A stretch of 64,000 bases of DNA from Limisphaerales bacterium. Lineage in GTDB: Bacteria > Patescibacteriota > JACMRA01. Below the pieces are notes generated by a model. It was not told the origin of the DNA. It ran no database searches and saw only the letters and a list, made by a program, of their open reading frames with translations. The DNA lies in contig JBIKIW010000001.1 of the NCBI GenBank assembly GCA_044361365.1, forward strand, positions 2,501 to 66,500, written 5' to 3'. The position numbers and the translations under genes were made by a program. Shown piece by piece: positions 1-64,000 of this stretch. Numbering within the stretch: position 1 is the first letter of the stretch; each line of letters starts with the position of its first letter.

Positions 1-1
1 T

Positions 2-679
2 CAAGTTAAGAATTTGTATTTAGTTGCGAGCTGCCAAAATATTGGTGATTTTAAAACCGGAAAAGACTTTAGTTTGATCCAAAAAAATTGTGAAAATATC
101 ACCATTTACCATTCCAAAGATGATCAAGTTGTACCTTTTAGCGTGGCTCAAGAAATTGCTAGCAAACTACCTAAGGCAAAGCTGGTTGAATTTGAAAACC
201 GAGGGCATTTTGTGGAAGCAGAATTTGTGGAATTAAAGTCTCAAATTAGTGCGGATTTACGAGTTGAAAACAAGACAGATTTTGAGAAATTTTACCCGAC
301 TCAGGAAATGACAACAGCCAAAGAAATTTTTTATATTTGGATCGTGCGAATGATTATTTTAGGGAAATATTTTACCGGTAAAATTCCGTTTGAAAAGGTG
401 ATTATTACGCCTACAATTTTGGACGAAAAAGGTAGAAAAATGAGTAAAAGCTTGGGCAACGGTCTCGACCCGGTTGTAGCAATTGATCAGTTCTCTTCAG
501 ACAGTCTCAGGCTTGCGATGCTCGGTGGTATGATCCCAAACAGAAACATGAAAATGGGCGGAAAATTAGCCGAAAATATCATGCAAAAATACCGCAACTT
601 TGGGAATAAGATTTGGAATGTAGCTAGGTTTTTGGAGGGGAAGGAAGGGGAGAAGAAACAAGATTTTGATATAAAATAA
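2..679 (+). CDS. valS: Chimeric ORF, 5' partial. The C-terminal end of a YdeN/RBBP9-like alpha/beta serine hydrolase is fused in frame to a valyl-tRNA synthetase catalytic-core segment (KMSKS region).
   Basis: The frame is open to the window edge. Up to about nt 265 it reads like the end of a hydrolase (IYHSKDDQVVPF...FENRGHF). From about nt 266 the same frame reads ValRS core: FYPTQ, IFYIWIVRMI, GRKMSKSLGNGLDP (KMSKS loop), YRNFGNKIWNVARF. There is no stop codon between the two parts. Confidence 0.7.
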   Translation, partial: QVKNLYLVASCQNIGDFKTGKDFSLIQKNCENITIYHSKDDQVVPFSVAQEIASKLPKAKLVEFENRGHFVEAEFVELKSQISADLRVENKTDFEKFYPTQEMTTAKEIFYIWIVRMIILGKYFTGKIPFEKVIITPTILDEKGRKMSKSLGNGLDPVVAIDQFSSDSLRLAMLGGMIPNRNMKMGGKLAENIMQKYRNFGNKIWNVARFLEGKEGEKKQDFDIK

Positions 680-804
680 ACCTCAAAATAAATATTTAGA
701 CACTAGATATAGTGTTAAAACTTAACTTAAAATTACTATATTTAGAAAAAAAGTGAATTTTCATTGACGAAAGTGTTGATTTTAGCGATAAGATTAATAC
801 TTTT

Positions 805-2382
805 ATGTTTGTGAAAATAATAACTCCAAAAACTTACTTTTCAGATTTTTTTGGTGTTGAGCAGAAAACAATTGAAAAATATGGTGCTTTTAATATTTCT
901 TTATTAAATGATTTACCATTATTTATTGACCCATTTTTACTTTTTAATAGCAAAAAAGAAGAGTATCAAAAATTACACCAAGATATTATAGATTATTTAT
1001 TATTTTTAAAATCAATTTCGGTTGAAGAATTAACTAAGGGTGATATTGATAATTATTTTAAATTTCCTGAAATTAAACAAACTTGGCTGGGCTATTCAAA
1101 AACTGGAAATGGTGGGAGTGGGTTAGGTGAAAAATTTGCAAATGGGCTTACGGAAAGTTTTAGAAAATATTTAACCAATTTCGGACAAGAAAAAGGTATA
1201 AGCCCACATTTAGAAAAAATTTGCTTATTTGATACAGGAATTGGTAAAGATAATATAAGTGATTTTACAACTAATTTGATCGTTGGATATTTAGCTAATT
1301 ACACACAAAAATTTTCAAATAAAAATATAGATGATAAATTTTTAGAGGATTTTAAAATTGAAAAATACAAATTTAATTATAACACAAGTAGTTGGGTTCC
1401 AAAAGTTTTTAAGCTACCTTTTATTATCAAAAGTAACGGGAAGAAAGAATATGTCTTATTAACACCTAAAGATATTTTAACTAAAGACAATCCCTGGATT
1501 AATAATAAAGATAAACTTAATCAATTTAATACAATTTTAGAAATACTTCCAAATGAACAATTGAGATCTCAAATAAATAGATATTTTAACTCAATTTTAA
1601 AAAAAGACGAAAAGGGTAGGTCGAGTAAAAAAGATCAAAATCAGGCTAAACTACAAATTTATCAAGAATACCCAGAATTAATAGATTTATTCATTAAAAC
1701 TAAAGAAGAGAGTGGTGATCAGGCTATAGCAAATAGCAGTGAAATTGTAGCTCAAACTGAATCTATCTTTATAGATCTTGCTAGAGAAATTGTTAAAAAA
1801 TTACAATCTGAAACAAATTTCTATAAACAAAAAACAGATTCTTTCGAAGATATTTACAGGAGGTTGCTTTATTTTAAAGATTGGGTTGAAAATAAAGGAG
1901 GTTGGAAGTTATTTTATAATAAACACCGAGAAATTACGAATGAATCTGAACTCCAGCTACTTTTTAAACTAGCTCATTTTGAGTCAAAATTTGATATCAA
2001 CTCGGAAGTAGACAACGGTTCGGGTCCAGTAGATTTTAAATCTTCAATGGGTTCAAAAGATAAAACTATTGTAGAGTTTAAACTTGCGAGAAATAGTAAA
2101 TTTAAACAAAATGCTCACCCACAAGGACAAGTTAGAGTTTATGAAAAATCTAATAATACTAAAAAATCTATAAAAGTCTTTTTTTGCTTTAATAAAAGTG
2201 AAGTTCAGAAGGTTGAAAAAAGTATAAAAGAGTTTAAGCTAAATGAAAATCAAATTGTAATTATAAACTGTAATAGCCAAGTTTCTGCTTCAAATGTTGA
2301 TCCTGCTAAGTTTGATGATTGGGATATAGAGAAAATGAGCGAACCCTCTTTTGAAGAGCAAGAATTAAATTGGAAGATATAA
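805..2382 (+). CDS. Hypothetical 525-aa protein with a C-terminal PD-(D/E)xK nuclease-like motif
   Basis: Long uninterrupted ORF. The C-terminal segment ESELQLLFKLAHFE...GPVDFKSSMGSKDKTIVEFKLARN fits the E...D...(D/E)xK pattern. The N-terminal 350 aa are not recognised. Confidence 0.6.
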   Translation: MFVKIITPKTYFSDFFGVEQKTIEKYGAFNISLLNDLPLFIDPFLLFNSKKEEYQKLHQDIIDYLLFLKSISVEELTKGDIDNYFKFPEIKQTWLGYSKTGNGGSGLGEKFANGLTESFRKYLTNFGQEKGISPHLEKICLFDTGIGKDNISDFTTNLIVGYLANYTQKFSNKNIDDKFLEDFKIEKYKFNYNTSSWVPKVFKLPFIIKSNGKKEYVLLTPKDILTKDNPWINNKDKLNQFNTILEILPNEQLRSQINRYFNSILKKDEKGRSSKKDQNQAKLQIYQEYPELIDLFIKTKEESGDQAIANSSEIVAQTESIFIDLAREIVKKLQSETNFYKQKTDSFEDIYRRLLYFKDWVENKGGWKLFYNKHREITNESELQLLFKLAHFESKFDINSEVDNGSGPVDFKSSMGSKDKTIVEFKLARNSKFKQNAHPQGQVRVYEKSNNTKKSIKVFFCFNKSEVQKVEKSIKEFKLNENQIVIINCNSQVSASNVDPAKFDDWDIEKMSEPSFEEQELNWKI

Positions 2383-2527
2383 AAAACAACATAGGTTATT
2401 TTAGTTTAATTAAAATTTAAAAGATAGATTCTCATAAACCCCTATTTAATCAACAAATATCTTTTTATACGAAAGAAAAAAAGTTTTGTGAAAATTAAAG
2501 AAAATAAAAAAAGAAACTCGGACTTGC

Positions 2528-2983
2528 TTACCCCACCAACTTAATCTTTTGAAATTTAGAATATTTCTTACTTAGTTCAATATCCCTAGTCACAAACATA
2601 TCAACATTATTGTTAATACAGCAGGCGATTTGCAGGGCATCTTCAAAATCTTTTTGACCATAATTACTTATTGCCCATTTTGCGTCTTCTTTAGATGCAT
2701 TCATTATTTCAAAATCTTTCGTAATTTCTTCAGCTAAGGTTAAAAAATTCTTTTTATAATTTTCTTGATCTAGCTTGGGAATATCTTCAAATTTAAGGTT
2801 TTTTAAATCTTTTTTAAAACCAGATTCTGCATAATAAAATATGGTATGTAGCGATAAAATAGTTACTGCAGGAACGTCATCATGTGCTAACTCTTGTATA
2901 AAAGAAGTGCTTGTTTCGTGAGATTCTCTATGAGAATTCATTATGTCCAAAATTATGTTTGTGTCGAAAAGAATTGTTGCCAT
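2528..2983 (-). CDS. vapC: PIN-domain toxin (VapC-like)
   Basis: N-terminus MATILFDTNIILD carries the first acidic residue. The C-terminal FVTRD motif, the size (151 aa), and the position immediately downstream of a small antitoxin-like ORF fit VapC. Confidence 0.8.
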   Translation of the reverse strand: MATILFDTNIILDIMNSHRESHETSTSFIQELAHDDVPAVTILSLHTIFYYAESGFKKDLKNLKFEDIPKLDQENYKKNFLTLAEEITKDFEIMNASKEDAKWAISNYGQKDFEDALQIACCINNNVDMFVTRDIELSKKYSKFQKIKLVG

Positions 2984-2989
2984 GTATAA

Positions 2990-3280
2990 TTATATTTTAC
3001 GTTCGTTATAAAGTTTATTTATATCAGTATTTGGATTGATTGGTGGTAATTTTGAAGATATTTTTTTTTGTTTATCAAGAAATGAAACTACTCTTTTATT
3101 TTCGATTTTTGAGTCAGCATTTAGCACAATACTAAATCGTTTCATTTTTTCACCGCGACCGTAGGTAAATTCGACTTCTTCGCCGTTGTAATAAATATCG
3201 TTGACGATATCACTTAGGTTTTGGCGGAGTTGTTTGGCTGAGACTGTTTTCATAAAAGTTAAAAGGTTGAACTTTGTCAA
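2990..3280 (-). CDS. Phd/YefM-like antitoxin (VapB partner)
   Basis: MKTVSAKQLRQNLSDIVNDIYYNGEEVEFTYGRGEK resembles Phd/YefM N-termini. The gap to the PIN gene is 6 nt. The true start is more likely the ATG at 3253 than the TTG at 3280. Confidence 0.7.
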   Translation of the reverse strand: MTKFNLLTFMKTVSAKQLRQNLSDIVNDIYYNGEEVEFTYGRGEKMKRFSIVLNADSKIENKRVVSFLDKQKKISSKLPPINPNTDINKLYNERKI

Positions 3281-3298
3281 GGTAAAAGTAGTAGATAA

Positions 3299-3327
3299 AA
3301 CTTACCACTACTTTAAAGTATTGTCAA
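3299..3327 (-). promoter_or_regulatory. Candidate sigma70-type promoter with an overlapping inverted repeat (putative TA autoregulatory operator)
   Basis: On the minus strand: TTGACA (3327-3322), a 17-nt spacer, then TAAGTT (3304-3299). The inverted-repeat arms aaagtagt (3285-3292) and actacttt (3307-3314) bracket the -10 element. Confidence 0.35.
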
Positions 3328-3476
3328 GTATTATCAATAAAGTAGCTAATAAATTGTATTTAATAAAGTTGAAAGGTTAAACTTTTGATGGTATTTTTGG
3401 ATTTATTTATGTCAACTTAAATATTGCCCTGCCAAAACAATTTGCCCAAACTTAAAAAGATTCGTTAGGTTTAGAT

Positions 3477-4025
3477 GTGTCCAAAACTGTTTTGATTTCT
3501 TGTTATGGGGTGTACGATTTAGAGCATCGAAACCCACTTCAGATCCAGGGTTTGCAGTCTTATTTTGGGGGGATTTATAAATATTTAAAGCCTATTAAAG
3601 ACGATTTAAAGTCGGTGATTTTTTGTGGAGGTTATCGGAATTTGGCAATTAGTGAAAGCCAAACTAGTCGGGATTATTTTTTAACTTTAGGTGCTGATTT
3701 TGAAAATTTCCCCTTGCTTTTAGAAACTAATTCTAAGTCCACACTTCAGAATCTAGCTCTAGGCTTTTTAACTGCCAACGAAGGTTTTTTGGGTCAAGAT
3801 TTGCTGATAATTTGTGATAGTTTTAGAGTAGAAAGAGTTAAAAATTTATCCAAGATTTTGTTTGAAGATCTAGGGCTAAAAATTGAAGTAAAAGGCTTTG
3901 AACGAAAAGATGATCACCCTCATTCTGATCAAAAATACCAACTAGAAACTGCTCTTCCGGGAGATTTAAACAGTCCAGAACTACAAACTTGGAAACAACT
4001 TTTAACCACTCAAATTACAAAATAA
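3477..4025 (+). CDS. DUF218/YdcF-like protein
   Basis: CGGYRNLAISESQTSRDYF...LLETNSKSTLQNLALG...LLIICDSFRVERV matches the DUF218 pattern (GG..SEA, S.nT.eN, vTs.fH..R). The stop at 4023-4025 lies 3 nt before the ATG of the valS C-terminal fragment. Confidence 0.55.
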   Translation: MSKTVLISCYGVYDLEHRNPLQIQGLQSYFGGIYKYLKPIKDDLKSVIFCGGYRNLAISESQTSRDYFLTLGADFENFPLLLETNSKSTLQNLALGFLTANEGFLGQDLLIICDSFRVERVKNLSKILFEDLGLKIEVKGFERKDDHPHSDQKYQLETALPGDLNSPELQTWKQLLTTQITK

Positions 4026-4028: not shown

Positions 4029-4847
4029 ATGCTACAAACTCAAAATTTATCGCCGGCTTCCATTTGGATTTTGCAAAAATATGTGGAATTAGAAAACAGA
4101 TTAGAAGAAAATTTGGTGACCTACGAATTAGCTCATTCGGTGGACGGTTTATACAAATTTTTGTGGGATTTTTATGCCGATTGGTATGTGGAATATATCA
4201 AAACTGACCCAAGTCAGGTGCCTTTTGCTAAAGATCTTTTTAAGCAATTTATAGTTACTCTAAACCCGTATTCACCGTTTGAAACTGAAGCCCTGTGGCA
4301 AGATTTTTTTGGAGAAAAAGAAAGTTTAGCTTTGGTGCAAAAAGATGTAAGTTGGGCTAAAAATATTTGGTCGCAGATTGATCAAAATAGGGTAGGTGAG
4401 TTCCAAACAATTGTGGATTTTATTTCAGATGTGAGATCTCTGAGGGGTTTATTTGCTATCGACCCGGCAGTTTTTTTGGAGGTAAATTCGTCCACCAAAT
4501 TGCTATCGGTTTATGCTGATTTTATAAAATCCAGCTCAAGAGTACACATTTTGGATCAAGAAGTTGAGGGTTTGTACGAAGTTGCTAGTCAAAATTATAT
4601 TTACAAAATTGATATTATTAAATACATTCCAGACTTCCAAAAAGAAATTAAACGAACTGAAAAAATCTTAGAAAGCCTAGAAAAGCAAATCAAAGCTTTG
4701 GAAAGTCAGCTACAAAATGAATCATTTTTGAAAAACGCTGAAGCTGAAGTAATAGCAGAAAAAAGACAAGATTTAAGGAATAGAGAGTTAGAAAAAACCC
4801 AGCAAGAGCAAAAACTAAAATACATAACAAGCTCGATTTTAAGCTAA
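4029..4847 (+). CDS. valS: Valyl-tRNA synthetase C-terminal fragment (anticodon-binding domain plus C-terminal coiled coil)
   Basis: SIWILQKYVELENRL...YKFLWDFYADWYVEYIK aligns to the ValRS segment that directly follows the NKLWNASRF motif. The heptad-like tail IKALESQLQNESFLKNAEAEVIAEKRQ is typical of ValRS. Confidence 0.85.
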   Translation: MLQTQNLSPASIWILQKYVELENRLEENLVTYELAHSVDGLYKFLWDFYADWYVEYIKTDPSQVPFAKDLFKQFIVTLNPYSPFETEALWQDFFGEKESLALVQKDVSWAKNIWSQIDQNRVGEFQTIVDFISDVRSLRGLFAIDPAVFLEVNSSTKLLSVYADFIKSSSRVHILDQEVEGLYEVASQNYIYKIDIIKYIPDFQKEIKRTEKILESLEKQIKALESQLQNESFLKNAEAEVIAEKRQDLRNRELEKTQQEQKLKYITSSILS

Positions 4848-6456: not shown

Positions 6457-6512
6457 CTTGACATCATTAAGTAATTGCTAGACTTCCTTCGCTTAATCTA
6501 ATAATTTTTTAT

Positions 6513-7007
6513 ATGTTCGAATCATTTTCAAAAGCTTACGAATCAATTTTTCGTGTGATTTTTATTATTTGGGTCTCGTTATGGGGGTTTATTAACCTAA
6601 TTAATTTGATAGTCCAATATGCCAATTTTTCCTCAATTTATGATGCTGGAGGTAACCAACTTGGTCTTTGGTGGGTAAATACAATTGGACATGTTTTAAC
6701 TATTACTTTTGGAGTTAGTTTGTTTGCTTTTATGCTTACAATTCCAAGCAAAATTAGAAAAGAAAAAACTGTCAGTAATGTAGGACTTATGGTTGCTTTG
6801 GTCATCTTTTACTACTTGTTTATTACAGTTATGAATATTGTAGCTAATCTACTTTTTGATCCAGGTAATTTTGCTAAATACTTTGCTTTTTCGACAGCTT
6901 GGTTATTGCCTAGTATAGTTTTGATGGTCTTCCATATTCTATATTTTGTGAATATCAATAAATACAATTTAGAGCTTGAAGAAAAGATGAAAACACATTC
7001 TAAATAA
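6513..7007 (+). CDS. Integral membrane protein, unknown function
   Basis: 164 aa with four to five hydrophobic segments. Confidence 0.6.
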   Translation: MFESFSKAYESIFRVIFIIWVSLWGFINLINLIVQYANFSSIYDAGGNQLGLWWVNTIGHVLTITFGVSLFAFMLTIPSKIRKEKTVSNVGLMVALVIFYYLFITVMNIVANLLFDPGNFAKYFAFSTAWLLPSIVLMVFHILYFVNINKYNLELEEKMKTHSK

Positions 7008-7013
7008 TTCAAA

Positions 7014-11410: not shown

Positions 11411-11486
11411 TGGTGGGTATGGGTGGATTTGAACCACCGACCGCAGACTTATAAGATCTGTGCTCTAACCCCTGAGCTACATACCC
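11411..11486 (-). tRNA. tRNA-Ile (anticodon UAU), CCA encoded
   Basis: Sense strand: GGGTATG-TA-GCTC-AGGGGTTA-GAGC-A-CAGAT-CTTATAA-GTCTG-CGGTC-GGTGG-TTCAAAT-CCACC-CATACCC-A-CCA. This gives a clean cloverleaf of 76 nt. Confidence 0.75.
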
Positions 11487-11564: not shown

Positions 11565-12197
11565 TTACTCTTTTGTTTCTATATATTCAAACGGGAAAGG
11601 ATCTCCCCAATATCTTTGTCTGCTAAACACCCAATCTCGGAATTTAAAATTAATCTGCTTTTCACCCTTTCCAAGGTCAACCAATTTATTAGTAATTTTT
11701 TGCTTTGCTTCTTTTCCATCTAAACCACTAAACTCACCAGAGTCGAATAAAATTCCATATTTGGTAAAAATATCTCCATTTTTTAACTTTTCCTCACAGT
11801 TTTCTCTTGGCTTTCCGTCTTCACTAATAGTTTCTTTGAGAGGAATGTTGTATTTTAAAGCAAATTCTACGTCTCTTTCGTCGTGAGCATCTGCCATAAC
11901 TACCCCAGTTCCGTAATTAGCTAAAACAAAATCGGCAATCCAAACAGGAATTTTATCTCCTCGTAGTGGGTGTTTAACAAAACTACCTGTGAAGACTCCA
12001 GTTTTTTCTTTGTTAATTTGCCTCTCTCGTTCACTTTTGGCTTTGGCTTTTTGGATGTATTTTTCAACCTCTTGCCTAAATTCTGGTTTGGTTATCTCTA
12101 AAACCATCGGGTGTTCTGGAGCCATTACTAAAAATGTGGCTGCATAAATAGTATCAACTCGGGTAGTGAAAGTGGAAAGTTTGGTAGGTTTTGACAT
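11565..12197 (-). CDS. leuS: Leucyl-tRNA synthetase fragment (CP1 editing domain through the RDW..SRQRYWG strand only)
   Basis: TTRVDTIYAATFLVMAPEHP, IPVWIADFVLANYGTGVVMADAHDERDVEFA and FKFRDWVFSRQRYWGDPFP align to the LeuRS CP1 region. The HIGH, KMSKS and anticodon-binding parts are absent. The ORF has its own ATG and stop. Confidence 0.85.
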   Translation of the reverse strand: MSKPTKLSTFTTRVDTIYAATFLVMAPEHPMVLEITKPEFRQEVEKYIQKAKAKSERERQINKEKTGVFTGSFVKHPLRGDKIPVWIADFVLANYGTGVVMADAHDERDVEFALKYNIPLKETISEDGKPRENCEEKLKNGDIFTKYGILFDSGEFSGLDGKEAKQKITNKLVDLGKGEKQINFKFRDWVFSRQRYWGDPFPFEYIETKE

Positions 12198-12264: not shown

Positions 12265-14505
12265 TTAACTAAATAAAGTGTCTTGACCGCTAGTTTTTAT
12301 CTTCCACCTATCGTCTTCGGTTCTTTCAGCAATATCTTCCAAAACTCTTAAAATATCTTGGTTTTCAGGTGTGATTCCATTTTTAAGTAGTGGAATAATT
12401 TCCCAACAAATTTCATCAAAAGTAGGCAATTGTTTTTCTCGTTCTCTACGATTTAAAAGACTAATTAAATAGTATTTTATCCTTAATTCTAAAGGGATAT
12501 GAGTTCTAAATTTTTTATTTTCTCTGATAAAGTATTTTTGTGAATTAAAATCGTAGTCAAAATTGGCTGTCAAAATTGGAGTTAAATCGCTATATTCTTT
12601 GCTTAAAATATCCAAAAAACCAAGTTCCAAACCTTGGATAACCAAGGCGTCATTGATTTCTTCCAAAGTTGCTCCATGATTTTTAGCAATAATTCCTTCG
12701 ATAGTCTCCAAAACTATAGCTGCAATATCTGTACCCAAATTTGCTTTTAGGATATTTTTTGGACTGCGGACTTTTTTGAAATTGATAATCAGTTGTCCAG
12801 CGATTACAGTAAAAGGATTTTGTCGTTTTTTAAAGCTAGTTTGCCCATTTGCTTGCTTGACTGCTCCTGCGTACTCAAATCCCATCTTTTCAGCTGTTTC
12901 TACGATAATATGCCAGTAGTGGGGATCTTTGTGAGCAAAAACAAAACTCATCCAGCGATCAAATTTTAGCACCCTGTACATTTCAGATATACTTTTAGCT
13001 ATCAAGTCCGAATACTCATGTTTGGTCTTATTATGGCTACCTCCCTCGATGGCTTCTTTTTCAAAATCCTCTTCAGTTACGGGCAAATCCAGCCAAGCAT
13101 TCCACATTGCTGACAAATCCAAATAAGCAATTTTAGCTCCGTAAGGTGGGTCAGTATAAATATAATCTACAGATTCGTCTTCAACTTTATTCAAATCAGT
13201 AGCATCACCTTTATAGACTTGTAAATCTTGAATAGTTTTTTGGTTAATTTTGTCCTTGATTTCTTGTTTGGCTGAAATTATTTTCTTCACTTTGTTTTCA
13301 AATGAATTTATCAAATTTAATTCAACAGGAGTTTTAGCTACTCTGTATCTATAATAAGCGAAAGCAGCAGCATTTCCAGCATTTTCTCCACGAGAACTAG
13401 AGGCATGATAGGTTAAGTTGTGTTTGGTAACTGTACTTGAAAAAGCTAATAAAAGTGAATTTTGAATACTTTTGTCTTTTACTTTTTTGATTAAATGCTT
13501 CAAAAAGGCTAATTCGGCAGTTTGTAGCGAGCTAAATAATTCAGCTACAGTTTGGACATCGGCAGTTTTATCGAGCTTTATATTTTTTAGGTTTTGCCAT
13601 TCAGTTTTATATTTTTCAAGATATTCTTGAGGTTTTTCTTTAATTTTATTCTCTTCGTTTTCATACTTTTCTTTAATTTTTAAAAATTCTTCATGTAATT
13701 TAGCAATATCTGTAGGCTCACAAAGACTGTTGATTATAAAAACTGGTAAAGGATTGAGGTCGATTCCAATAGTTTTGCGAGCTTGCATTAAAGATTCGAT
13801 ACTAGTAACACCACTTCCTACAAAAGGATCTAGTACCAAATCTCCAGGCTGGGTAAAATGCTTGATATAATGACTAACAATATTCCAAGCTTGTTTGGTA
13901 AAATATCCGTGAACTCCAAAATGCCTAGCAGTTGACTGTTTTTTTACTGGTATTTCTTTTGGTAATGGTCGGTTCAAATAATCAAAGTCTGGTTGTAAAG
14001 CTGGCGACACGGTGGTCGCCTCTACGGAAAGGGAATTGGGTTTGTTGAAATTTTTTGGTGAAAGGAGTTTTTCTAACTTACCCCAATAATAATCAATTTC
14101 TTGAAGATCGAAACGAAGTAGGTTCTGGCTACTTTCTTTTTCCCAAAGGACAAATTCTCTTCCGTTGCACATTGCAAAATATTTAGCACGAATTTCTGGA
14201 TGAATAGCATAACCATAAACCTGTCCATCATCTTCACACTTTTCTTTTGGAGATTTCGCATCAAGAACACAAATTGAAAGCCCATTAGTTTGTAATAGAT
14301 AATCTGGTATTTCAGTTATTTGTCTTTTATTTGATCCAATTTTGTAAAAAGGATTTCTCAAACCTTTGTGTGATAAAATTTTAGCATCTTCTGTTGACCT
14401 AGAATAACCAAGTTTGATTAAAATTGGCATTATCAGGTCTTCCCGTACAGAGTCTTCTTTAAAATCTGGTGAATTTAACAAATCAAAGTTGAAGTTGGAA
14501 AACAT
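12265..14505 (-). CDS. Fusion of an HsdR_N-like PD-(D/E)xK fold with an amino (N6-A/N4-C) DNA methyltransferase
   Basis: N-terminus DSVREDLIMPILIKLGY...IPDYLL...VLDAKSP (nuclease-fold motif). SAM motif DPFVGSGVTS. Catalytic motif YTDPPYGAKI. 746 aa. Confidence 0.8.
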   Translation of the reverse strand: MFSNFNFDLLNSPDFKEDSVREDLIMPILIKLGYSRSTEDAKILSHKGLRNPFYKIGSNKRQITEIPDYLLQTNGLSICVLDAKSPKEKCEDDGQVYGYAIHPEIRAKYFAMCNGREFVLWEKESSQNLLRFDLQEIDYYWGKLEKLLSPKNFNKPNSLSVEATTVSPALQPDFDYLNRPLPKEIPVKKQSTARHFGVHGYFTKQAWNIVSHYIKHFTQPGDLVLDPFVGSGVTSIESLMQARKTIGIDLNPLPVFIINSLCEPTDIAKLHEEFLKIKEKYENEENKIKEKPQEYLEKYKTEWQNLKNIKLDKTADVQTVAELFSSLQTAELAFLKHLIKKVKDKSIQNSLLLAFSSTVTKHNLTYHASSSRGENAGNAAAFAYYRYRVAKTPVELNLINSFENKVKKIISAKQEIKDKINQKTIQDLQVYKGDATDLNKVEDESVDYIYTDPPYGAKIAYLDLSAMWNAWLDLPVTEEDFEKEAIEGGSHNKTKHEYSDLIAKSISEMYRVLKFDRWMSFVFAHKDPHYWHIIVETAEKMGFEYAGAVKQANGQTSFKKRQNPFTVIAGQLIINFKKVRSPKNILKANLGTDIAAIVLETIEGIIAKNHGATLEEINDALVIQGLELGFLDILSKEYSDLTPILTANFDYDFNSQKYFIRENKKFRTHIPLELRIKYYLISLLNRREREKQLPTFDEICWEIIPLLKNGITPENQDILRVLEDIAERTEDDRWKIKTSGQDTLFS

Positions 14506-17613: not shown

Positions 17614-20600
17614 ATGCCAAAAGATCTTCACCTTTTTGATAGTTACCAAAGAAAAGTTTTGCCGATCCAGTGCAGCGAAGAAGATAAACTAAAAATTTAC
17701 GGCTGTGGTCCAACAGTATATAATTATCAGTCTATTGGAAACATGCGAGCAGTCTGGTTACCGGATACAATTTCAAAAGTTGCTAAAATTGCCGGGTACA
17801 AAACTGAGTGGGTTAGTAACATTACCGATGTTGGGCATTTGGTGGATGATGGAGACGATGGTGAAGACAAAATCGAGAAAGGTGCCAAGCGAGAGCAAAA
17901 AACCGTGGAGGAAATTATCAACTTTTATGTACAAGATTTTAAGGATCAGTGCGGGGCATTAAACTTTGATTTGCCAGCTGGAAAATACCAACCAAAAGCT
18001 ACACAATATATTGGTGAACAAATGGTTTTGGCTTTGGAGCTACTGCGAGATGGGAAAGCTTACCTGACAGATGACGGGATTTATTTTGAGAATATCCCAC
18101 CAGATACAACATCTCCCCAACCCTTGTGGAACAGAGAAACACCCCCCCAACCCCCTTCAAAGGGGGAGTACATCAAGCTTACTAGTGTTCTTGAGGATAG
18201 GGATGTGTATTCTTCTACCTTTAGCCACCCCCCCAGCCTTCAAAGGGGGAGTACAAAGTCTAGGTTAGAACTTGCTCGGGAACACAAATTAAACAAAGAA
18301 GGTTGGGATTTTGTAGTTTATAACAATAAGTTGAATAAGTTTTCTAAAGAAATGCGAAAAAACCCCACGAAAGCGGAGAAAAAGTTTTGGGATGTTGTCC
18401 GTAAAGATAAGTTGTTGGGTGAATTTACCTGGAATCGACAAAAACCTATAGATAATTTTATAGCTGATTTTTACTGTAGGGAGTTGAAAGTGGTTATTGA
18501 AATTGATGGAGGTGTGCATAATTCTGAGCAAGCCAAAGGCTACGATAATGAGAGGGATAATATCCTAAGAGGTTTAGGTTTAGAAATGCTTAGATTTACA
18601 AATGATGAAATACTAGTTAATCCAAATTCAGTTTTGGCACAAATAAATGATTGGGCTAACTTATCACCTACGAGCTTTCAAGTCGAGAATACCCCCCCCT
18701 TGAGGGGGGTTGGGGGGATGTCTCCATTAAAGGGGTTAAGCCAAATTATTGAAACGATTCAAAATCTCCAAAAAGAAAAACCAAACAAACCTTTGATAAT
18801 AACTATCGACGGGCGAGGTGGGAGTGGAAAGTCAACTTTTGCTGAAAAATTGATTGAACTAATCCCAAATTCAGCTGCAATTGAACAAGACAAATTTTTG
18901 GAATTTATGAAAGGAATGGATACCAAATCTGACTCCTGGAACCATCGAAATTTTGAATTAGATAAACAATCTTTGCAGGAAGAATTGGAAAATCACAAAG
19001 ATAAAAAAGTGATAATCCTAGAAGGCATAAAAAGTTTTGCAAATATTGAATCTGATCTAAAAATTTGGCTTGATTCTAGTCAAAAAGATAACAAACAAAG
19101 AGCTAAAAAAAGAGATGTAAAAGGTGAAGTAAATTCAGATGGTTTTGAAATATTTTGGCAGGAGTTTGAGGTACATTCTCAAAAATATATTCAGGATTTT
19201 AAACCCGAGGAAAAAGCTGATTTCATAGTTTCGATAGAAGGTGATGGGTATGAGGTAATTTCAACTGATGACACAGAACTCGAAAAAATAGTTGGTACTA
19301 TTAATCGACTCAAAAAAGATAAAGGTGATAAACCAATTATAATAGCTATTGATGGTCGAGGCGGGAGTGGAAAGTCAATTTTAAGTAAGAAAATAGCTGA
19401 AAATCTCGAGGATGTAGAAGTTTTAGAATGTGATGATTTTTTTGATTTTGAAAAGCTAGATGAAAAGGTTTTTTTCTGGGATAAAGAAAGATTTAAAACT
19501 CAAATTCTAATACCACTGACTCAAGGCAAAGAAGCTATCTTTGAAAGCAATAATTGGATAGATCAAAAACTAGTCGGTAAAATAAATAAAACTGTGCAAT
19601 CAAAAAAATTTATTATACTTGATGGTTTGTGTACTTTGCAACAAGATTTGATCAAGTATTACGATCTTAATATTTGGGTTGAAAAAGAATTAGAATCATC
19701 ACTTCATGCCGCTAAAACACGAGATGTAAATGAGAGAAATAGAGCAGAACAAGAATTTCATGAATTGTGGGATAAATGGATTCCAGTTCAAGAGAAATAT
19801 ATCAATTTAGTAAAACCCCAGGAAAAAGCTGATATTATTATTTCTACTGAAAATGGTGGGTATGAGATTTTGGAAGATAGAACCAATCAAAACTACACCG
19901 GTCGTAACATAATCCAAACCGAAAAAAGAAATCCGCATGATTTTGCTTTGTGGAAATTTGTATCCGAAAATAGTTTGCAAAAATGGAAGTTTAATCAGTT
20001 TGAAAATACTGAAGATTTGATGATTGAGATTATTCAAACCCTCGATTCTAAAGATTACGATTTACCAAATAGATGGGGTTGCCCTGGTTGGCACAGTGAG
20101 TGCGTGGCGATGATTAGTGAGATACTTGGGCATCAGAGATTTTCTGGAAAGTTTGGGCATCTTCTCAAAGATAATTTGTATGAAATCGACATTCATACCG
20201 GCGGCGAAGATCATATCGATATTCACCACAAAAATGAAATTTTACAATCCAAAGCTCTTGGTTTTCATTTGTCCAAATATTGGGTTCACAACAAATTTGT
20301 GCTGGTTGATGCTAAAAAAATGAGTAAGAGTTTGGGGAATGTTTTTTTGGTTAAAGGCGATTTTAAAACAACAGGTTTTTATAGTTTCCAAAACCCGCCA
20401 ACTCAAGATTTTAGCGAGGAGTTTAAACAGCAGATTATTAAGAAATATAAGGAGCTGAAAATTTATGATTTGAATAAAAATCTAAGTGAAGTAGAAATAC
20501 CCCGTCAGTCTATGACTGCCACCCCTTCGCAAGCAAAGGGGAATATGGAGTTTGAAGAACAGTCCAAAAAAGAAAGTGTATTTTGGCAGAATTTTAGTTT

Positions 20601-21120
20601 CGACCCCATTGCTTACAGGTTGATGCTAATGGAACATCACTACACTGAACAGATGAATTTTACCTGGGAAAAGCTTTGGCAAAGCCAAATGAGACTCTGG
20701 AATTTGCGAAAAGATGCTGCTAGAATTATCAGTTTTGCAACTCAAAATAAAACTAAACCAGAAACCGATCAAAAACAAATTCAAATACTTTTGGACTATC
20801 TTTTAGATAATTTAGATACACCAAAATTTGTGGAAAAATACCAGAACTTTTTGGGAGATGTTATAAATGAAATTGCAAAAAATAATGTTTTAAACCCTAA
20901 AAATTTGGGAGCAATTCTATTTTGGGAAAAGGAACTTTTGAAGTTAAATTTTAATCCAAAAATATCACCTGAAGTTATTGAGTTAATCGAGCAAAGGCAA
21001 GAGGCAAAAATTGCCAAAGATTATCAAAAATCTGATCAAATTAGAGTTCAAATTCAGGCTCAAAATCTGCAAGTTGATGATTATAGTTGGGGTAGTGGAG
21101 TTTGGAAGAGATTAAATTAA
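17614..21120 (+). CDS. cysS: Cysteinyl-tRNA synthetase with two large in-frame insertions
   Basis: CysRS motifs: YGCGPTVYNY, RNPHDFALWK, GCPGWHSEC, DIHTGGEDHIDIHHKNE, KKMSKSLGN, MEHHYTEQMNF. The ORF is interrupted in frame at 18097-19890 (598 codons) and at about 20365-20592 (76 codons). Confidence 0.9.
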   Translation: MPKDLHLFDSYQRKVLPIQCSEEDKLKIYGCGPTVYNYQSIGNMRAVWLPDTISKVAKIAGYKTEWVSNITDVGHLVDDGDDGEDKIEKGAKREQKTVEEIINFYVQDFKDQCGALNFDLPAGKYQPKATQYIGEQMVLALELLRDGKAYLTDDGIYFENIPPDTTSPQPLWNRETPPQPPSKGEYIKLTSVLEDRDVYSSTFSHPPSLQRGSTKSRLELAREHKLNKEGWDFVVYNNKLNKFSKEMRKNPTKAEKKFWDVVRKDKLLGEFTWNRQKPIDNFIADFYCRELKVVIEIDGGVHNSEQAKGYDNERDNILRGLGLEMLRFTNDEILVNPNSVLAQINDWANLSPTSFQVENTPPLRGVGGMSPLKGLSQIIETIQNLQKEKPNKPLIITIDGRGGSGKSTFAEKLIELIPNSAAIEQDKFLEFMKGMDTKSDSWNHRNFELDKQSLQEELENHKDKKVIILEGIKSFANIESDLKIWLDSSQKDNKQRAKKRDVKGEVNSDGFEIFWQEFEVHSQKYIQDFKPEEKADFIVSIEGDGYEVISTDDTELEKIVGTINRLKKDKGDKPIIIAIDGRGGSGKSILSKKIAENLEDVEVLECDDFFDFEKLDEKVFFWDKERFKTQILIPLTQGKEAIFESNNWIDQKLVGKINKTVQSKKFIILDGLCTLQQDLIKYYDLNIWVEKELESSLHAAKTRDVNERNRAEQEFHELWDKWIPVQEKYINLVKPQEKADIIISTENGGYEILEDRTNQNYTGRNIIQTEKRNPHDFALWKFVSENSLQKWKFNQFENTEDLMIEIIQTLDSKDYDLPNRWGCPGWHSECVAMISEILGHQRFSGKFGHLLKDNLYEIDIHTGGEDHIDIHHKNEILQSKALGFHLSKYWVHNKFVLVDAKKMSKSLGNVFLVKGDFKTTGFYSFQNPPTQDFSEEFKQQIIKKYKELKIYDLNKNLSEVEIPRQSMTATPSQAKGNMEFEEQSKKESVFWQNFSFDPIAYRLMLMEHHYTEQMNFTWEKLWQSQMRLWNLRKDAARIISFATQNKTKPETDQKQIQILLDYLLDNLDTPKFVEKYQNFLGDVINEIAKNNVLNPKNLGAILFWEKELLKLNFNPKISPEVIELIEQRQEAKIAKDYQKSDQIRVQIQAQNLQVDDYSWGSGVWKRLN
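18140..18168 (+). repeat. Left terminal inverted repeat with internal hairpin cccccttcaaaggggg
   Basis: Read directly from the sequence; the hairpin spans 18151-18166. Confidence 0.7.
18226..18255 (+). repeat. Second, direct partial copy of the left repeat
   Basis: The 19-mer ccttcaaagggggagtaca is shared between 18154-18172 and 18237-18255. Confidence 0.7.
18691..18720 (-). repeat. Right terminal inverted repeat
   Basis: The sequence accccccccttgaggggggttggggggatg is the reverse-complement match to 18140-18168. Confidence 0.7.
20497..20544 (+). repeat. GC-rich two-hairpin element (about 48 nt), copy 1, in frame inside cysS
   Basis: ataCCCCGTCAGTCtatGACTGCCACCCCTTcgcaagcAAAGGGGAAt. The same architecture occurs at 34125-34172 and 34260-34310 on the opposite strand. 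Confidence 0.7.
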
Positions 21121-25698: not shown

Positions 25699-26691
25699 AT
25701 GGATTTTGACCCCAAAGAAATTATCAAAAACTTGCCTCACGAGCCTGGAGTTTATCGTTTTTATTCTTCCAGTGAAGATCCACTTTATATCGGAAAAGCT
25801 AAAGACCTCAAAAACCGAGTTAGTAGTTATTTTCAAGATGGGCGTCCTAAAAACCAGCGACTAAGTTTGATGATTTCTCAGATTGAAAGGATTGAATATA
25901 CTGTTGTAAAAACTGAAAAAGAAAGCCTAATTTTGGAGGCAAATTTGATCCACAAACTTCAGCCAAAATACAATATTTTACTCAAAGATGATCGTAATTA
26001 TTTGTATGTGCGGCTGACGAACGCCGATCCGATTCCAGGATTTTTCTTGACCCGCAGAAAATACGACCCACGAAGTGACTATTTTGGTCCATACACCAAG
26101 TTAAGCGGAATAGTCCAAACCATGAGGACTTTAAGGCTTATTTTTCCGTACTGCCAAGAAAAATTTCCCAAAAAAAAAGCTTGTAGTTATGTGGGGATTA
26201 AGCAGTGCGATGGAATTTGTGCGGGGCTTGAAAGCAAACAGGATTATCTCAAAAAATTAGATCAAATTAAAAATATTTTGAGTGGGAAAATTGAACCAGC
26301 CGAAAACTTTTTGACCCAAAAAATGCAAGAAGCGGTGGCAACTCAAAACTTTGAACTAGCGGCACTTTGGAGGGATAGATTAAAAATGCTTAAAGAAACC
26401 ATCGCCGATCAAAAGATAATTTTGCCACACCCGCAAGATCTGGATTTGGTGACTTTGGTGGTGGACGAACCGGACGGAAATGGCTTGCAAATCGGAAGTG
26501 TTTTTGTGCAAACAATTAGAGAAGGGAAGATTATTAATGTGAACAATTTTTTGCTTAGCGGAAGTGAAGAAGAGAGTCAGGAAAATTCTGCAAATTCATT
26601 TTTAGAAAGATTTTTGGTGTCGTATTATTCGTCTCGAACTGAAAATGCTCCGGTTTTGGTGCAATCTTTTTATAGACAAAATGAGATTTAA
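25699..26691 (+). CDS. uvrC: UvrC N-terminal half only (GIY-YIG nuclease, Cys cluster, UVR domain)
   Basis: PGVYRFYSSSEDPLYIGKAKDLKNRVSSYF (GIY-YIG), CSYVGIKQCDGICAG, QNFELAALWRDRLKML (UVR). It ends at 330 aa with no RNase H-like or HhH2 C-terminal half. Confidence 0.8.
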   Translation: MDFDPKEIIKNLPHEPGVYRFYSSSEDPLYIGKAKDLKNRVSSYFQDGRPKNQRLSLMISQIERIEYTVVKTEKESLILEANLIHKLQPKYNILLKDDRNYLYVRLTNADPIPGFFLTRRKYDPRSDYFGPYTKLSGIVQTMRTLRLIFPYCQEKFPKKKACSYVGIKQCDGICAGLESKQDYLKKLDQIKNILSGKIEPAENFLTQKMQEAVATQNFELAALWRDRLKMLKETIADQKIILPHPQDLDLVTLVVDEPDGNGLQIGSVFVQTIREGKIINVNNFLLSGSEEESQENSANSFLERFLVSYYSSRTENAPVLVQSFYRQNEI

Positions 26692-60506: not shown

Positions 60507-60507
60507 T

Positions 60508-61191: not shown

Positions 61192-61203
61192 AATAATTCT
61201 GAC

Positions 61204-62340: not shown

Positions 62341-62367
62341 CACGAATCAGTGGAATCGAAAGTCCAC

Positions 62368-63438
62368 CTAACTCAACCCAACCTCCTTACATAAATACAC
62401 ACTTTGCACGGCTTTGAGGATTTCCACACCTTCTTCCATTTCTCTTTGAAAAGCTTTGCGTCCCATAATTAAGCCACTTCCACCAGCTTTTTTGTTGATT
62501 ACAGCTGATCTTACAGCATCTTGTAGGTCATTGTCAGCACTCCCACCTCCTGAGCTGATTAGAGGAATCTTGCCGCTGTAGCAGTTTAGTACTTGGTATC
62601 TAGCTAGGTCAATTGGGTGTTCGCTGGTTAGATTTGTGTAAATCTTTTCATCTAGTTTTCCGTAGCTGGAGCTTCCAGTATTCATAGCTTTAAAACCTCC
62701 GTTTATGTCTGGTAATTTTTGCTTGATAATATCAGCTTCAAGTGTTACTCCAAGATGATTAGCTTGCCCGGTAAGGTCGGCTGAAGTTTCGTAGTTTTTG
62801 CCGTTTTGTTTAAAATTATCGTTACGAACATAGCACCATAAAATCGTGAAAAGTCCTAATTTATGAGCTTTTTGAAAGGCTTTACGAATCGCTTGAATTT
62901 CCTCTCCAGAATTTGGCGAACCAAAATAAATTGTAGCTCCAACTCCCACCGCTCCCATATCAAAAGCCTGATCAACTTCAGCAAAAAGCTGCTCGTTAAA
63001 TTTATTTGGGTAGCTCAAAAGTTCGTTGTGATTTAGTTTCAAAATAAAAGGAATTTGGTGAGCGTATTTGCGAGACATTAACCCCAAAACTCCAAGAGTA
63101 GAAGTGACACCACTACAACCTGCATTTATAGCCAATTTGATTATATTTTCTGGGTCAAAATAAATTGGATTTTTGGCAAAACTTGCTCCTGCAGAGTGTT
63201 CAACTCCTTGATCAACAGGTAGAATTGAAAGATAGCCAGTTCGTCCCAAATTGCCGTGATTATAAAGCGAGGATAGATTTCGTAAGACTGAATTATTTCT
63301 ATCGGAGTTCATCATTATTTCAGAAATATGATTTGGATTTGGGGAGTGTAGGGAATCTTTGGATACAGTTTTGGACTCGTGATTTAGAAGGTAATCAGCG
63401 TGATCGCCGAGGATTTTTTGAATGTCAGAATATTGCAT
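62368..63438 (-). CDS. fbaB: Class I fructose-bisphosphate aldolase (FbaB/DhnA type)
   Basis: Near-colinear with E. coli FbaB: GYLSILPVDQGVEHSAGASFA, KLNHNE, GAVGVGATIYFGS, ADLTGQANHL, DIIKQK, VINKKAGGSGLIMGRKAFQ. Confidence 0.9.
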   Translation of the reverse strand: MQYSDIQKILGDHADYLLNHESKTVSKDSLHSPNPNHISEIMMNSDRNNSVLRNLSSLYNHGNLGRTGYLSILPVDQGVEHSAGASFAKNPIYFDPENIIKLAINAGCSGVTSTLGVLGLMSRKYAHQIPFILKLNHNELLSYPNKFNEQLFAEVDQAFDMGAVGVGATIYFGSPNSGEEIQAIRKAFQKAHKLGLFTILWCYVRNDNFKQNGKNYETSADLTGQANHLGVTLEADIIKQKLPDINGGFKAMNTGSSSYGKLDEKIYTNLTSEHPIDLARYQVLNCYSGKIPLISSGGGSADNDLQDAVRSAVINKKAGGSGLIMGRKAFQREMEEGVEILKAVQSVYLCKEVGLS

Positions 63439-63561
63439 AATATTTTTAGGTTACAAGAGTTTGATTTTTCTGTAAATGTTATTTTTTCAAGATCTTGTGC
63501 AGGTGGAATTATTTTTGGGAGAATTTGACATAATACTGAAATCAGTATATTTTACTGAAAT

Positions 63562-63807
63562 ATGATCACCAAAACCGTTAGAATAACTTTAGATTTACCC
63601 CTTAAATTGCACACTCAAGTCAAAACTAAAGCAAGTCAAAATGGGCAAACTCTAAAGCAGTTTTTTATAGATTTGGCGACTGGTAAAAATCAAAATTTAG
63701 TAAATGCCAAAAAAAATACTAGGAAAATGCCAAAAGGTGTGAAACTTGGTGTAAATGAGGATCAGATCAAACAAATAATTAGTGAAACATGGCTACCAAA
63801 GTTTTAA
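63562..63807 (+). CDS. Ribbon-helix-helix antitoxin (VapB-like)
   Basis: VRITLDLPLKLHTQVKTKASQNGQTLKQFFIDL is an RHH pattern. It overlaps the downstream PIN gene by 19 nt. Confidence 0.55.
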   Translation: MITKTVRITLDLPLKLHTQVKTKASQNGQTLKQFFIDLATGKNQNLVNAKKNTRKMPKGVKLGVNEDQIKQIISETWLPKF

Positions 63808-64000
63808 TTGATACCAATGTTTTGATTTACACTTTCGTTGTAGATAGTCCATTTTATGCAAAAAGTAGAGAGTTTTTGGAAGGTTTAATTCAAGATAAAG
63901 AAGTGGAAATTTGCATTACTGAAAAATCACTTTTTGAAATGGTAGTTGTTTTTGCAAGTCCAGCTTTTTTGGGCAAAATTGAAGTGGTGCAAATAAAAGA
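63789..64000 (+). CDS. vapC: PIN-domain toxin (VapC-like), 3' partial
   Basis: The MATKVLIDTNVLIY N-terminus is nearly identical in style to the PIN gene at 2528-2983. The ORF runs off the window. Confidence 0.75.
   Translation, partial: MATKVLIDTNVLIYTFVVDSPFYAKSREFLEGLIQDKEVEICITEKSLFEMVVVFASPAFLGKIEVVQIK

Follow-up and report, generated by a model that had tools for sequence, protein, structure and literature searches.

Split and domain-decorated aminoacyl-tRNA synthetases and other large enzymes in a freshwater Patescibacteria-type genome

Naturally split aminoacyl-tRNA synthetases (aaRS) are textbook rarities, represented by the leucyl-tRNA synthetase (LeuRS) of Aquifex and the alanyl-tRNA synthetase (AlaRS) of Nanoarchaeum, and artificially split Escherichia coli synthetases provide a further precedent for assembly from pieces. 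Also known are free-standing aaRS editing proteins (AlaX, YbaK/ProX and crenarchaeal ThrRS-ed), the naturally split dnaE of cyanobacteria, which is rejoined by a split intein, and the Rickettsia palindromic elements, which occur in frame inside protein-coding genes, housekeeping genes among them. Here we describe a stretch of 64 000 nt (hereafter the window) from a metagenome-assembled genome (MAG) deposited as Limisphaerales bacterium and placed by GTDB in the Patescibacteriota (GCA_044361365.1, contig JBIKIW010000001.1), together with the remainder of that genome. The window carries single pieces of leuS, uvrC and recG, one whole piece and part of another of the valyl-tRNA synthetase (ValRS) gene valS, and cysS and dnaX genes with in-frame insertions. 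We think it likely that, in this Patescibacteria-type (candidate phyla radiation, CPR) freshwater lineage, large multidomain enzymes have repeatedly been broken at interdomain linkers into separate polypeptides.

The free-standing editing proteins resemble the separate connective peptide 1 (CP1) and AlaRS editing pieces found here in that an editing domain stands as its own protein; AlaX, ProX and ThrRS-ed are paralogues or were split only from editing, whereas here the catalytic Rossmann fold is also divided. The alpha-beta LeuRS of Aquifex aeolicus is encoded by separate genes whose products assemble non-covalently and are active (cited in PMC3643597). It is likewise a bacterial LeuRS made from separate genes, but it consists of two pieces cut inside the leucine-specific domain, whereas the present genome has three with cuts on both sides of CP1, including a free 210 aa editing domain and a third piece that carries Ser_hydrolase, NUDIX and HAD domains. 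Many essential genes are split in Nanoarchaeum equitans and Nanoarchaeota, with a two-piece AlaRS among them (PMC3655853, PMC3491384). The likeness lies in a tiny and probably host-associated genome with dispersed splits at domain boundaries, AlaRS included; the present lineage differs in being bacterial, in having up to three pieces per gene, in nested and recurrent fissions within one family and in its in-frame guests. For the valS locus, and for a model of essential genes as safe harbours, the best precedent is the nrdA-a/mobE/nrdA-b locus of phage Aeh1, in which the pieces of an essential enzyme surround a nuclease gene and function is achieved through protein–protein assembly (PMC3045599). 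Both loci have collinear pieces with a nuclease gene between them, but in Aeh1 the homing endonuclease is the evident cause of the split and supplies interaction peptides, whereas the contents of the valS gaps are variable, differ between genera and are younger than the split, and no known homing endonuclease family was found in the valS gaps. Inteins, and 'fractured genes' with split inteins, likewise place foreign coding sequence in essential genes (PMC2677866). They share with the present genes an in-frame foreign sequence and a nuclease module (DUF559 here), and differ in that no Hint domain is found here and the guests would stay in the mature protein. Finally, the Rickettsia palindromic elements are a multicopy short palindromic repeat (mentioned in PMC1166351 and PMC1779305). 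The GC-rich element of the present genome also lies both between genes and in frame without destroying genes, but belongs to an unrelated sequence family, with a GC-rich two-hairpin core of ~48 nt and ~20 copies embedded in a 125 nt unit. What we describe is thus of a known kind, namely naturally split and domain-decorated enzymes; unusual are its scale, the occurrence of synthetases in three pieces, with CP1 standing free, and the link between guest sites and fission sites. In the literature searched we found no description of split aaRS or of guest domains in CPR bacteria.

Large enzymes divided between separate reading frames

The source MAG (G000 in comparisons with its relatives) comprises 1.475 Mb in 77 contigs, named C5, C14, C23 and so on, with the window at C77:2501-66500. 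It has a G+C content of ~34 %, an estimated completeness of 88 % and contamination of 0.2 %, whilst the genomes of its relatives measure 0.7–1.6 Mb. Contigs with identical genes originate from freshwater metagenomes, a cysteinyl-tRNA synthetase (CysRS) homologue at 40 % identity carries the label 'Patescibacteria group', and the standard genetic code applies. Pfam scans were combined with tblastn of the whole genome using 27 E. coli K-12 proteins, from which the residue ranges of pieces are given in E. coli protein numbering, and layouts were checked against independent metagenome assemblies. The census of splits covered ~26 large genes, and that of in-frame guests 17 aaRS and nine other large genes.

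We identified six split genes: valS, leuS and alaS in three pieces each, and uvrC, dnaE and recG in two each (Table 1). rpoB, rpoC, secA, gyrB, dnaK and most aaRS genes were whole. The original prediction, made from the window alone, had described several of these genes as truncated and had listed neither alaS nor dnaE; once the whole genome was searched, they proved to be complete in pieces, with breaks at domain boundaries as it had proposed. Every piece is an open reading frame (ORF) of its own with start and stop inside the contig, the stops being mostly TAA or TAG, and most pieces have an ATG within the first few codons. In this 88 %-complete genome the tblastn matches of the pieces together cover residues 9–859 of LeuRS, 1–931 of ValRS and 4–696 of AlaRS. 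The HIGH and KMSKS motifs are intact across pieces, none of which is missing or contains internal stops or frameshifts. The original prediction had also raised the prospect of intact second copies elsewhere, but tblastn found none for any split gene in the 88 %-complete genome.

In the case of valS, the two or more pieces and the hydrolase fusion that had been predicted are real, and the pieces number three. Piece 2 starts 1898 bases upstream of the window, covers residues 128–652 and contains the editing domain, the KMSKS motif and an in-frame Ser_hydrolase (PF06821); within the window it runs from the end of this guest through a FYPT...KMSKS catalytic segment to the stop. Piece 3 presents the anticodon-binding domain and the C-terminal tRNA-binding arm as a separate protein. 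Contigs from other samples reach into C77 and, at their upstream end, overlap with C47, the contig bearing piece 1, at 100 % identity; valS therefore consists of three collinear pieces. The 24 contigs read show the order valS-1, Mrr nuclease, S-adenosylmethionine (SAM) methyltransferase, glyoxalase, valS-2, cassette and valS-3 on one strand, the intervening genes setting the pieces 2.3 and 3.4 kb apart. No other split gene has collinear same-strand pieces with a nuclease gene in a gap; the pieces of leuS, alaS, dnaE, uvrC and recG are mutually unlinked, and in most cases have ordinary housekeeping neighbours. The ValRS tail occupies a separate frame in ~15 of 24 family genomes, the closed genome included. 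In public data, stand-alone ValRS tails form 75 clusters at 42–81 % identity, almost all of 259–298 aa (outliers of 329 and 195 aa), on contigs of up to 1.27 Mb. Between strains, the ratio of non-synonymous to synonymous substitution rates (dN/dS), calculated for valS piece 2 only, was 0.02–0.06 in the ValRS core and 0.05–0.12 in the Ser_hydrolase guest.

leuS had been taken to be represented by its CP1 domain alone. The window does hold a free-standing CP1, but the other two pieces exist elsewhere in the genome, and the breaks between the three fall at E. coli residues 236/243 and 438/447, flanking CP1. The third piece starts with its Ser_hydrolase guest and carries NUDIX and HAD guests as well. 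The exact CP1 protein was found on 39 contigs from several sources, and stand-alone homologues form ~17 clusters at 52–93 % identity. CP1 is also separate in G012, with identical first and last residues, where its neighbours are cell-division and glycolysis genes. In the studied species the gene directly upstream encodes a 746 aa methyltransferase that is conserved in the strain contigs, and a tRNA-Ile with anticodon UAU lies just downstream (window 11411-11486, minus strand).

Comparison of LeuRS across relatives revealed a range of states at the two sites before and after CP1. Stops occupy both sites in G000 and G012. G001 has a NUDIX domain at the first site and a stop at the second, at the identical residue as in the studied genome, whilst G004 has a stop at the first site and nothing seen at the second, its CP1 and C-terminal half being continuous in one frame with E. 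coli residues 240–859. G005 carries Ser_hydrolase before and NUDIX after CP1; G015 carries two NUDIX domains and a further segment before and HAD after; G006 and G025 have Ser_hydrolase at the second site. The sites of guest insertion in LeuRS coincide with the sites of fission across genera. As LeuRS piece 3 begins with the Ser_hydrolase that is found after CP1 elsewhere, the guest may have been inserted first, with a stop and restart following.

For uvrC and recG, the C-terminal half and the wedge domain respectively had been reported missing. The window indeed holds only residues 5–319 of UvrC and only the helicase half of RecG, but the RNase H/HhH half of UvrC lies on C5 and a putative wedge partner for RecG on C23. 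The N-terminal half of UvrC is separate in ~20 of 24 family genomes (frames of 332–378 aa), and UvrC is whole outside the family. The remainder of uvrC would be expected where an ORF now lies that we take, by eye, to be trpA-like (window 26645-27472, plus strand); it shares 47 nt with the 3′ end of uvrC piece 1. The helicase piece of RecG begins ~20 residues before Walker A, and whole RecG (676–706 aa) is present only outside the order. The candidate wedge protein on C23 itself has no Pfam hit, its G012 homologue scores 24 bits for RecG_wedge (PF17191) against a cut-off of 23, hhalign places it collinear with E. coli RecG residues 23–285 (E 0.0013, probability 19 %), and its AlphaFold2 model has a pLDDT of 52 from a four-sequence alignment. 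AlaRS pieces on C5, C54 and C14 correspond to positions 1–259, 272–369 and 384–453 of Pfam tRNA-synt_2c plus tRNA_SAD; the gene is split across the whole order and, in eight genomes, a second time. DnaE is broken between its HhH and OB-fold domains, and its C-terminal piece forms a frame of 236–393 aa in every family genome with a match, whereas in the sister family and beyond this part lies within a frame of 1142–1404 aa. Only 1.2 kb separates alaS piece 1 (C5:19556-20467) from uvrC piece 2 on the same strand, an interval with genes that we assume by eye to be peroxiredoxin-like and Hsp20-like; this proximity may be coincidence or reflect a shared expression unit.

The closed one-contig relative G017 has split ValRS, UvrC, AlaRS and DnaE, with one match each for ValRS-3, UvrC-N and AlaRS-2 and two adjacent matches for DnaE-C within one frame of 366 aa. 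G002, G006 and G008 combine a three-piece AlaRS with a whole ValRS, and G001 and G009 show the opposite. This partly nested, partly mosaic pattern indicates that fission has been recurrent in the lineage and was not a single accident. The splits are traits at the level of the family or order, and some have arisen independently at different sites.

We weighed three explanations under which the pieces would not be independent functional subunits. An assembly artefact, with chimeric joins or mixed populations concealing intact genes, might be suspected in a MAG of 77 contigs in which C47 and C77 are broken apart though contiguous in other assemblies. Against this, many assemblies made independently, from different samples and with different pipelines, give identical layouts (valS-3 is indexed in 69 blocks, with 22 contigs read, and valS-1 in 96 blocks, with 24 contigs read), the same splits are found in the closed single-contig relative and ~20 other genomes, and starts and stops are clean and lie inside long contigs; we give an artefact next to no credence. 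Alternatively, the pieces could be decaying pseudogenes, with a host, or intact copies that escaped detection, providing the function, as CPR bacteria are reduced and often host-dependent and CheckM-type completeness is low across the family. This sits poorly with dN/dS values of 0.02–0.12, with uniform length at 42–81 % identity over 75 clusters, and with intact catalytic motifs in a complete set of pieces free of internal stops and frameshifts. No bacterium is known to import aaRS or DnaE, and we consider decay highly improbable.

A third possibility is that the pieces are joined after all, by split inteins, trans-splicing, or programmed read-through or bypass. Cyanobacterial dnaE is a precedent for intein-mediated joining, and some relatives have neighbouring pieces with just one stop between them. 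Also known are 'fractured genes', in which split inteins flank a nuclease gene (PMC2677866). However, Pfam scans of the pieces and of cysS found no Hint/intein domains, and the piece ends match host sequence directly, leaving no spare residues for intein halves. The pieces of LeuRS, AlaRS, DnaE, UvrC and RecG, moreover, lie on different contigs, and those of valS are kilobases apart. Stop-codon reassignment was rejected, since reading TGA or TAG as sense adds only 5–9 % to ORF length and read-through gives nonsense sequence. Joining of the pieces accordingly appears a very remote prospect. No Shine–Dalgarno-like motif precedes the predicted starts of 14 split-gene pieces, but none was seen at any gene start examined, so its absence is uninformative on independent translation; the lineage may initiate translation without it. 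In sum, the independent assemblies, the relatives, the signs of selection and the lack of inteins or recoding make artefact, pseudogenes and protein splicing very unlikely. The split layout is inherited and kept by selection, and is neither damage nor assembly error.

Table 1. Location and content of split-gene pieces, in-frame insertions and associated genes. Coordinates without a contig name are window positions; residues follow E. coli numbering.
Feature	Location (strand)	Length	Content	Match	E. coli residues
valS piece 1	C47	118 aa	N-terminal HIGH region		
valS piece 2	C77:603-3179 (full gene); 1..679 (+), 3′ part	858 aa		tRNA-synt_1, E 1.3e-22 on window part	
First gene of valS gap 2	805..2382 (+)	525 aa	Candidate defence protein	DUF8370/DUF8371; PADLOC PDC-M36A, E 7e-26	
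VapBC-type pair, valS gap 2	2528..3280 (-)		PIN toxin, 2528-2983; Phd/YefM-like antitoxin, 2990-3280	PIN_3, E 3.9e-9; PhdYeFM, E 0.0078 (weak)	
DUF218 gene	3477..4025 (+)		Ends 3 bases before valS piece 3	DUF218, E 7.6e-6, slightly short of cut-off	
valS piece 3	4029..4847 (+)	272 aa		Anticodon_1, E 1.1e-15; Val_tRNA-synt_C, E 9e-8	669-931
leuS piece 1	C43	246 aa frame	HIGH half of Rossmann fold		9-236
leuS piece 2	11565..12197 (-)	210 aa	CP1 editing domain	PF13603, E 5.3e-51	243-438
leuS piece 3	C33	972 aa frame	KMSKS/anticodon		447-859
Methyltransferase	12265..14505 (-)	746 aa	PglX/type II-like; directly upstream of CP1 gene	N6_N4_Mtase (Pfam); PADLOC PglX, E 5.9e-45	
cysS	17614..21120 (+)	1168 aa		tRNA-synt_1e, E 2.7e-50, two stretches	
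cysS insert 1a	18097..18729 (+)		DUF559 (Vsr-like nuclease) module	DUF559, E 3e-31	
cysS insert 1b	18730..19908 (+)		Two tandem P-loop kinase domains	PRK, E 1.7e-12; AAA_18, E 4.2e-8	
cysS insert 2	20365..20592 (+)	~76 codons	One GC-rich two-hairpin element, core 20500-20525		
uvrC piece 1	25699..26691 (+)	330 aa		GIY-YIG, UVR (Pfam)	5-319
uvrC piece 2	C5:21651-22634		RNase H endonuclease, HhH		331-582
recG piece 1 (putative wedge)	C23:28805-29620	272 aa frame	Homologous to separate 268-285 aa proteins of G012, G018 and G009		
recG piece 2	32239..33522 (-)			DEAD, Helicase_C, RecG_dom3_C	292-642
dnaX	33533..35386 (-)	617 aa	Element cores 34141-34164 and 34278-34302	DNA_pol3_delta2, E 1.1e-31	

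Guest domains and hairpin elements within frames

The predicted cysS gene with two in-frame insertions was confirmed as a single ORF, the exact product of which occurs on seven independent contigs. Insert 1 lies in the connective-peptide region, flanked by E. coli CysRS residues 2–151 and 167–278, and this large insert is found only in the studied genome, the frames of relatives measuring 467–778 aa. Its DUF559 module has GC-rich inverted repeats of ~25 nt at the edges (18140-18168 and 18691-18720), and the two kinase domains that follow are 33 % identical to each other. A CysRS at 83 % identity (P0133) carries kinase 1 and a HAD domain at the insert 1 site, and lacks both the DUF559 module and a block of ~29 codons that includes the hairpin element of insert 2; the module and this block are therefore recent insertions. 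In long CysRS homologues from elsewhere, this connective-peptide site is occupied by kinase, HAD, NUDIX, alpha/beta hydrolase, DUF218, DUF559 or RayT-type transposase domains.

Guests that the original prediction had not listed were also identified in other synthetases. The threonyl enzyme (ThrRS) carries DUF952, the glutamyl enzyme (GluRS; C34, 712 aa) an in-frame NUDIX domain that separates the catalytic from the anticodon-binding domain, and the lysyl enzyme (LysRS; C40, 794 aa) a C-terminal DUF2000 together with an N-terminal extension of ~170 aa. The isoleucyl enzyme (IleRS) was rejected as a further carrier, as the Pfam scan of its 1221 aa frame found no foreign domain. Ser_hydrolase, which lies inside ValRS, LeuRS and, elsewhere, CysRS, is also free-standing (~200 aa) in many genomes, and the guests form a pool exchanged between aaRS types. 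Catalytic motifs of the guests look intact by direct reading (NUDIX box, HAD DxDG, GxSxG and P-loop), and most in-frame guests look to be housekeeping-type hydrolases and kinases under purifying selection and not selfish DNA. Between strains, synonymous divergence (dS) is three to four times higher in the Ser_hydrolase guest of ValRS (0.43–0.74) than in the ValRS core (0.09–0.24), which suggests recombinational exchange of guest alleles.

The original prediction had named aaRS genes as the preferred targets. A census of 17 aaRS genes, of the kind that it had called for, found Val, Leu and Ala enzymes split and Val, Leu, Cys, Thr, Glu and Lys enzymes with guests. For splits the preference does not hold, as uvrC, dnaE and recG make up three of the six split genes, but in-frame guests were present in 6 of 17 aaRS versus none of nine other large genes, and aaRS are probably preferred for whole-domain in-frame cargo.

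The repeat elements predicted in dnaX are two in-frame copies of a family with 38 copies genome-wide by pattern search, which takes the form CCCCGTCA-hairpin-TGCCACCCC-hairpin. By our own estimate, the 38 full matches to the extended pattern compare with fewer than one expected, and by our own calculation from base composition the 8-mer CCCCGTCA occurs 51 times against ~8 expected. The GC-rich core stands out in an AT-rich genome, and its first stem shows compensatory variation. The 125 nt units, in which ~20 copies lie, are intergenic and resemble a miniature transposon (e.g. C29:6786-6907). Around the two-hairpin core there are ~20 full and 25 partial copies of this repeat unit, and its predicted consensus structure pairs the 5′ segment with the 3′ segment (strand as given). 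A further ~15 copies of the element are in frame in ORFs of 137–1179 aa, which are mostly restriction-modification-like but include cysS, dnaX and an ELP3-like gene. DUF559 modules are present in three copies, two of them in frame within larger ORFs. One 1136 aa methyltransferase-like ORF (C33:39109-42516, minus strand) contains both an in-frame DUF559 module and three GC-rich elements, a load indicating that in-frame colonization is heaviest in restriction-modification-like genes. Within the window, Rfam recognized only tRNAs and a transfer-messenger RNA (tmRNA), the repeats being without a matching family. A RayT (Y1) transposase was considered as the mobilizer of the hairpin repeats and rejected; in a single tblastn test of the incomplete genome, CysRS-embedded Y1_Tnp proteins retrieved only parts of CysRS. 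From sequence features, it is plausible that DUF559 with its inverted GC-rich ends and the hairpin repeats are in-frame mobile elements.

Cargo of the valS gaps and the proposed order of events

The original prediction further held that the foreign material at the aaRS sites is defence-like or selfish, and that essential genes serve as safe harbours for it. In its strong form, this would mean that selfish or defence DNA targets essential genes, aaRS in particular, and that its insertion split them, with function rescued by clean breaks between domains or by in-frame translation through the insert. The valS locus gives the clearest support. Its pieces are collinear, gap 1 holds the Mrr nuclease and methyltransferase genes (and, in one strain, three extra small ORFs), and gap 2 contains a PDC-M36A-like gene followed by a PIN/antitoxin pair. 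The first gap 2 gene is swapped between strains for DUF4365, SLFN_AlbA_2 or two unknown ORFs, amounting to four alternative contents at about window 652-2419 (or to 3098) between flanks that are 93–99.9 % identical. PIN/antitoxin alleles also vary by strain, with variants of 131, 137 and 151 aa. Comparison with related genomes, as originally proposed, thus showed the splits to be shared and gap 2 to be polymorphic between strains. As to the nature of these occupants, PDC-M36A is itself only a candidate system, PIN/antitoxin, SLFN_AlbA_2 and DUF4365 are suggestive of defence, and two alleles have no match. The DUF218 gene is present in all strain contigs, and DUF218 (PF02698) is an in-frame guest of a CysRS from another lineage (P0151); the idea that it is a conserved partner of valS-3, or was once its guest, was nonetheless rejected, as the gene is absent upstream of valS-3 in 13 relatives. 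Beyond valS, the methyltransferase gene adjoining the CP1 gene, the in-frame hairpins of cysS and dnaX and the repeat-flanked DUF559 module of cysS, which are missing in a close relative, and the DUF559 and RayT-type transposase domains in frame in CysRS elsewhere also speak for such targeting.

Several observations run counter to cargo-driven splitting. The break between ValRS pieces 2 and 3 is common to at least 13 genera, in which the pieces either are not linked or enclose a YgjP-like peptidase gene, an amine oxidase gene or unknown genes, and none of the cassette genes of the studied species was found at this gap in the other genera compared. Other genera break ValRS elsewhere, with the middle piece cut approximately after residue 152, 200 or 320. 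Since the break is common to strains and genera whose gap contents differ, the cargo is younger than the break. The CP1 gene of G012, moreover, is flanked by genes of cell division and glycolysis; three of the six split genes encode enzymes other than aaRS and have housekeeping neighbours; and the in-frame guests are for the most part conserved hydrolases or kinases of metabolism. We therefore consider it unlikely that selfish or defence DNA split these genes. What survives of the original prediction is that defence-like or selfish material does occupy the valS gaps, although most in-frame guests are of another kind, and that the variable valS gaps and the DUF559 and hairpin inserts are consistent with safe harbours, although the splits are older than their cargo. 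On these comparisons, the valS gap is a landing pad and not the scar of the present element. The splits are old family or order traits and the cassettes species- or strain-level acquisitions, and the present cargo therefore did not cause the splits.

Returning to repeated fission at interdomain linkers, the following course of events seems to us most likely. Synthetases would accept whole guest domains in frame at surface-exposed connective-peptide or linker sites; those seen in the aaRS of the lineage are Ser_hydrolase, NUDIX, HAD, DUF952, DUF2000, DUF218, P-loop kinases and DUF559. The likeliest route to fission would be insertion of a guest followed by a stop and restart, with the guest staying on one piece, as in LeuRS piece 3. 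After the split, the gap would become ordinary intergenic space, and in the studied species the valS gaps would have turned into landing pads for restriction, defence and toxin–antitoxin genes, the set of which changes from strain to strain. The GC-rich palindromic repeats and DUF559 modules, which may insert in frame, as in cysS and dnaX, would add a second layer. By analogy with the known split enzymes, the pieces most likely reassemble non-covalently into working enzymes, and the free CP1 may dock on, or act in trans with, the LeuRS body formed by the other two pieces. The suggestion that these features represent coherent biology and not isolated oddities stands, with function apparently preserved under purifying selection and the inserts in frame as predicted.

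A number of points weigh against this account. In an 88 %-complete MAG an intact copy could lie on unassembled DNA, although the closed relative G017 argues otherwise. We infer the order of insertion and fission from character states without a species tree, and a nonsense mutation or frameshift with restart, or the fusion of once-separate genes, could produce the same pattern. Non-covalent reassembly is argued from precedent, and the assignment of the C23 protein as the RecG wedge is weak. The enrichment of guests in aaRS has a one-sided Fisher p of ~0.05, with small numbers and some genes assessed by length comparison only.

An extension of repeated fission is that the whole family possesses modular translation and replication enzymes, in which aaRS act as scaffolds for exchangeable guests coupled to synthetase chemistry, and insertion followed by fission gives birth to subunits. 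We regard this broader view as tentative, with the odds against it. Specific roles for the guests, such as clearing Ap4A (diadenosine tetraphosphate) or aminoacyl-adenylate by-products, or hydrolysing mischarged aminoacyl esters, are speculative.

Three other features of the window were recorded. The tmRNA at 35472-35959 (plus strand) matches the full Rfam model (positions 1–374) yet spans 488 nt, and probably carries an insertion of ~110 nt. The segment at 6468-7308, comprising the end of a 164 aa membrane ORF and the first part of a 274 aa alpha/beta hydrolase gene, is missing from four of seven strain contigs. A 415 aa ORF at 45708-46955 (plus strand) matches Peptidase_M78 (IrrE-like) and the PADLOC capP model over residues 231–351, its N-terminal part being without a family match.

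Significance for the family

The present family offers a graded series running from whole genes, through whole genes with guests, to two-piece and three-piece genes. This series covers LeuRS, ValRS and AlaRS together with DnaE, UvrC and RecG that are split without inteins, and it makes testable how far a Rossmann-fold synthetase can be cut and still assemble, whether CP1 can function as a free subunit and whether insertion precedes fission. There are also practical consequences for genome analysis. Completeness estimates are 68–93 % within the family and 86 % for the closed genome, compared with 94–100 % in most other families (one MAG at 87 %), and split or decorated marker genes probably depress these estimates. 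Automatic annotation will likewise label the split genes as partial or as pseudogenes. Lastly, the valS locus indicates that an essential gene, once split, can offer in its gaps a hotspot for strain-variable defence genes.

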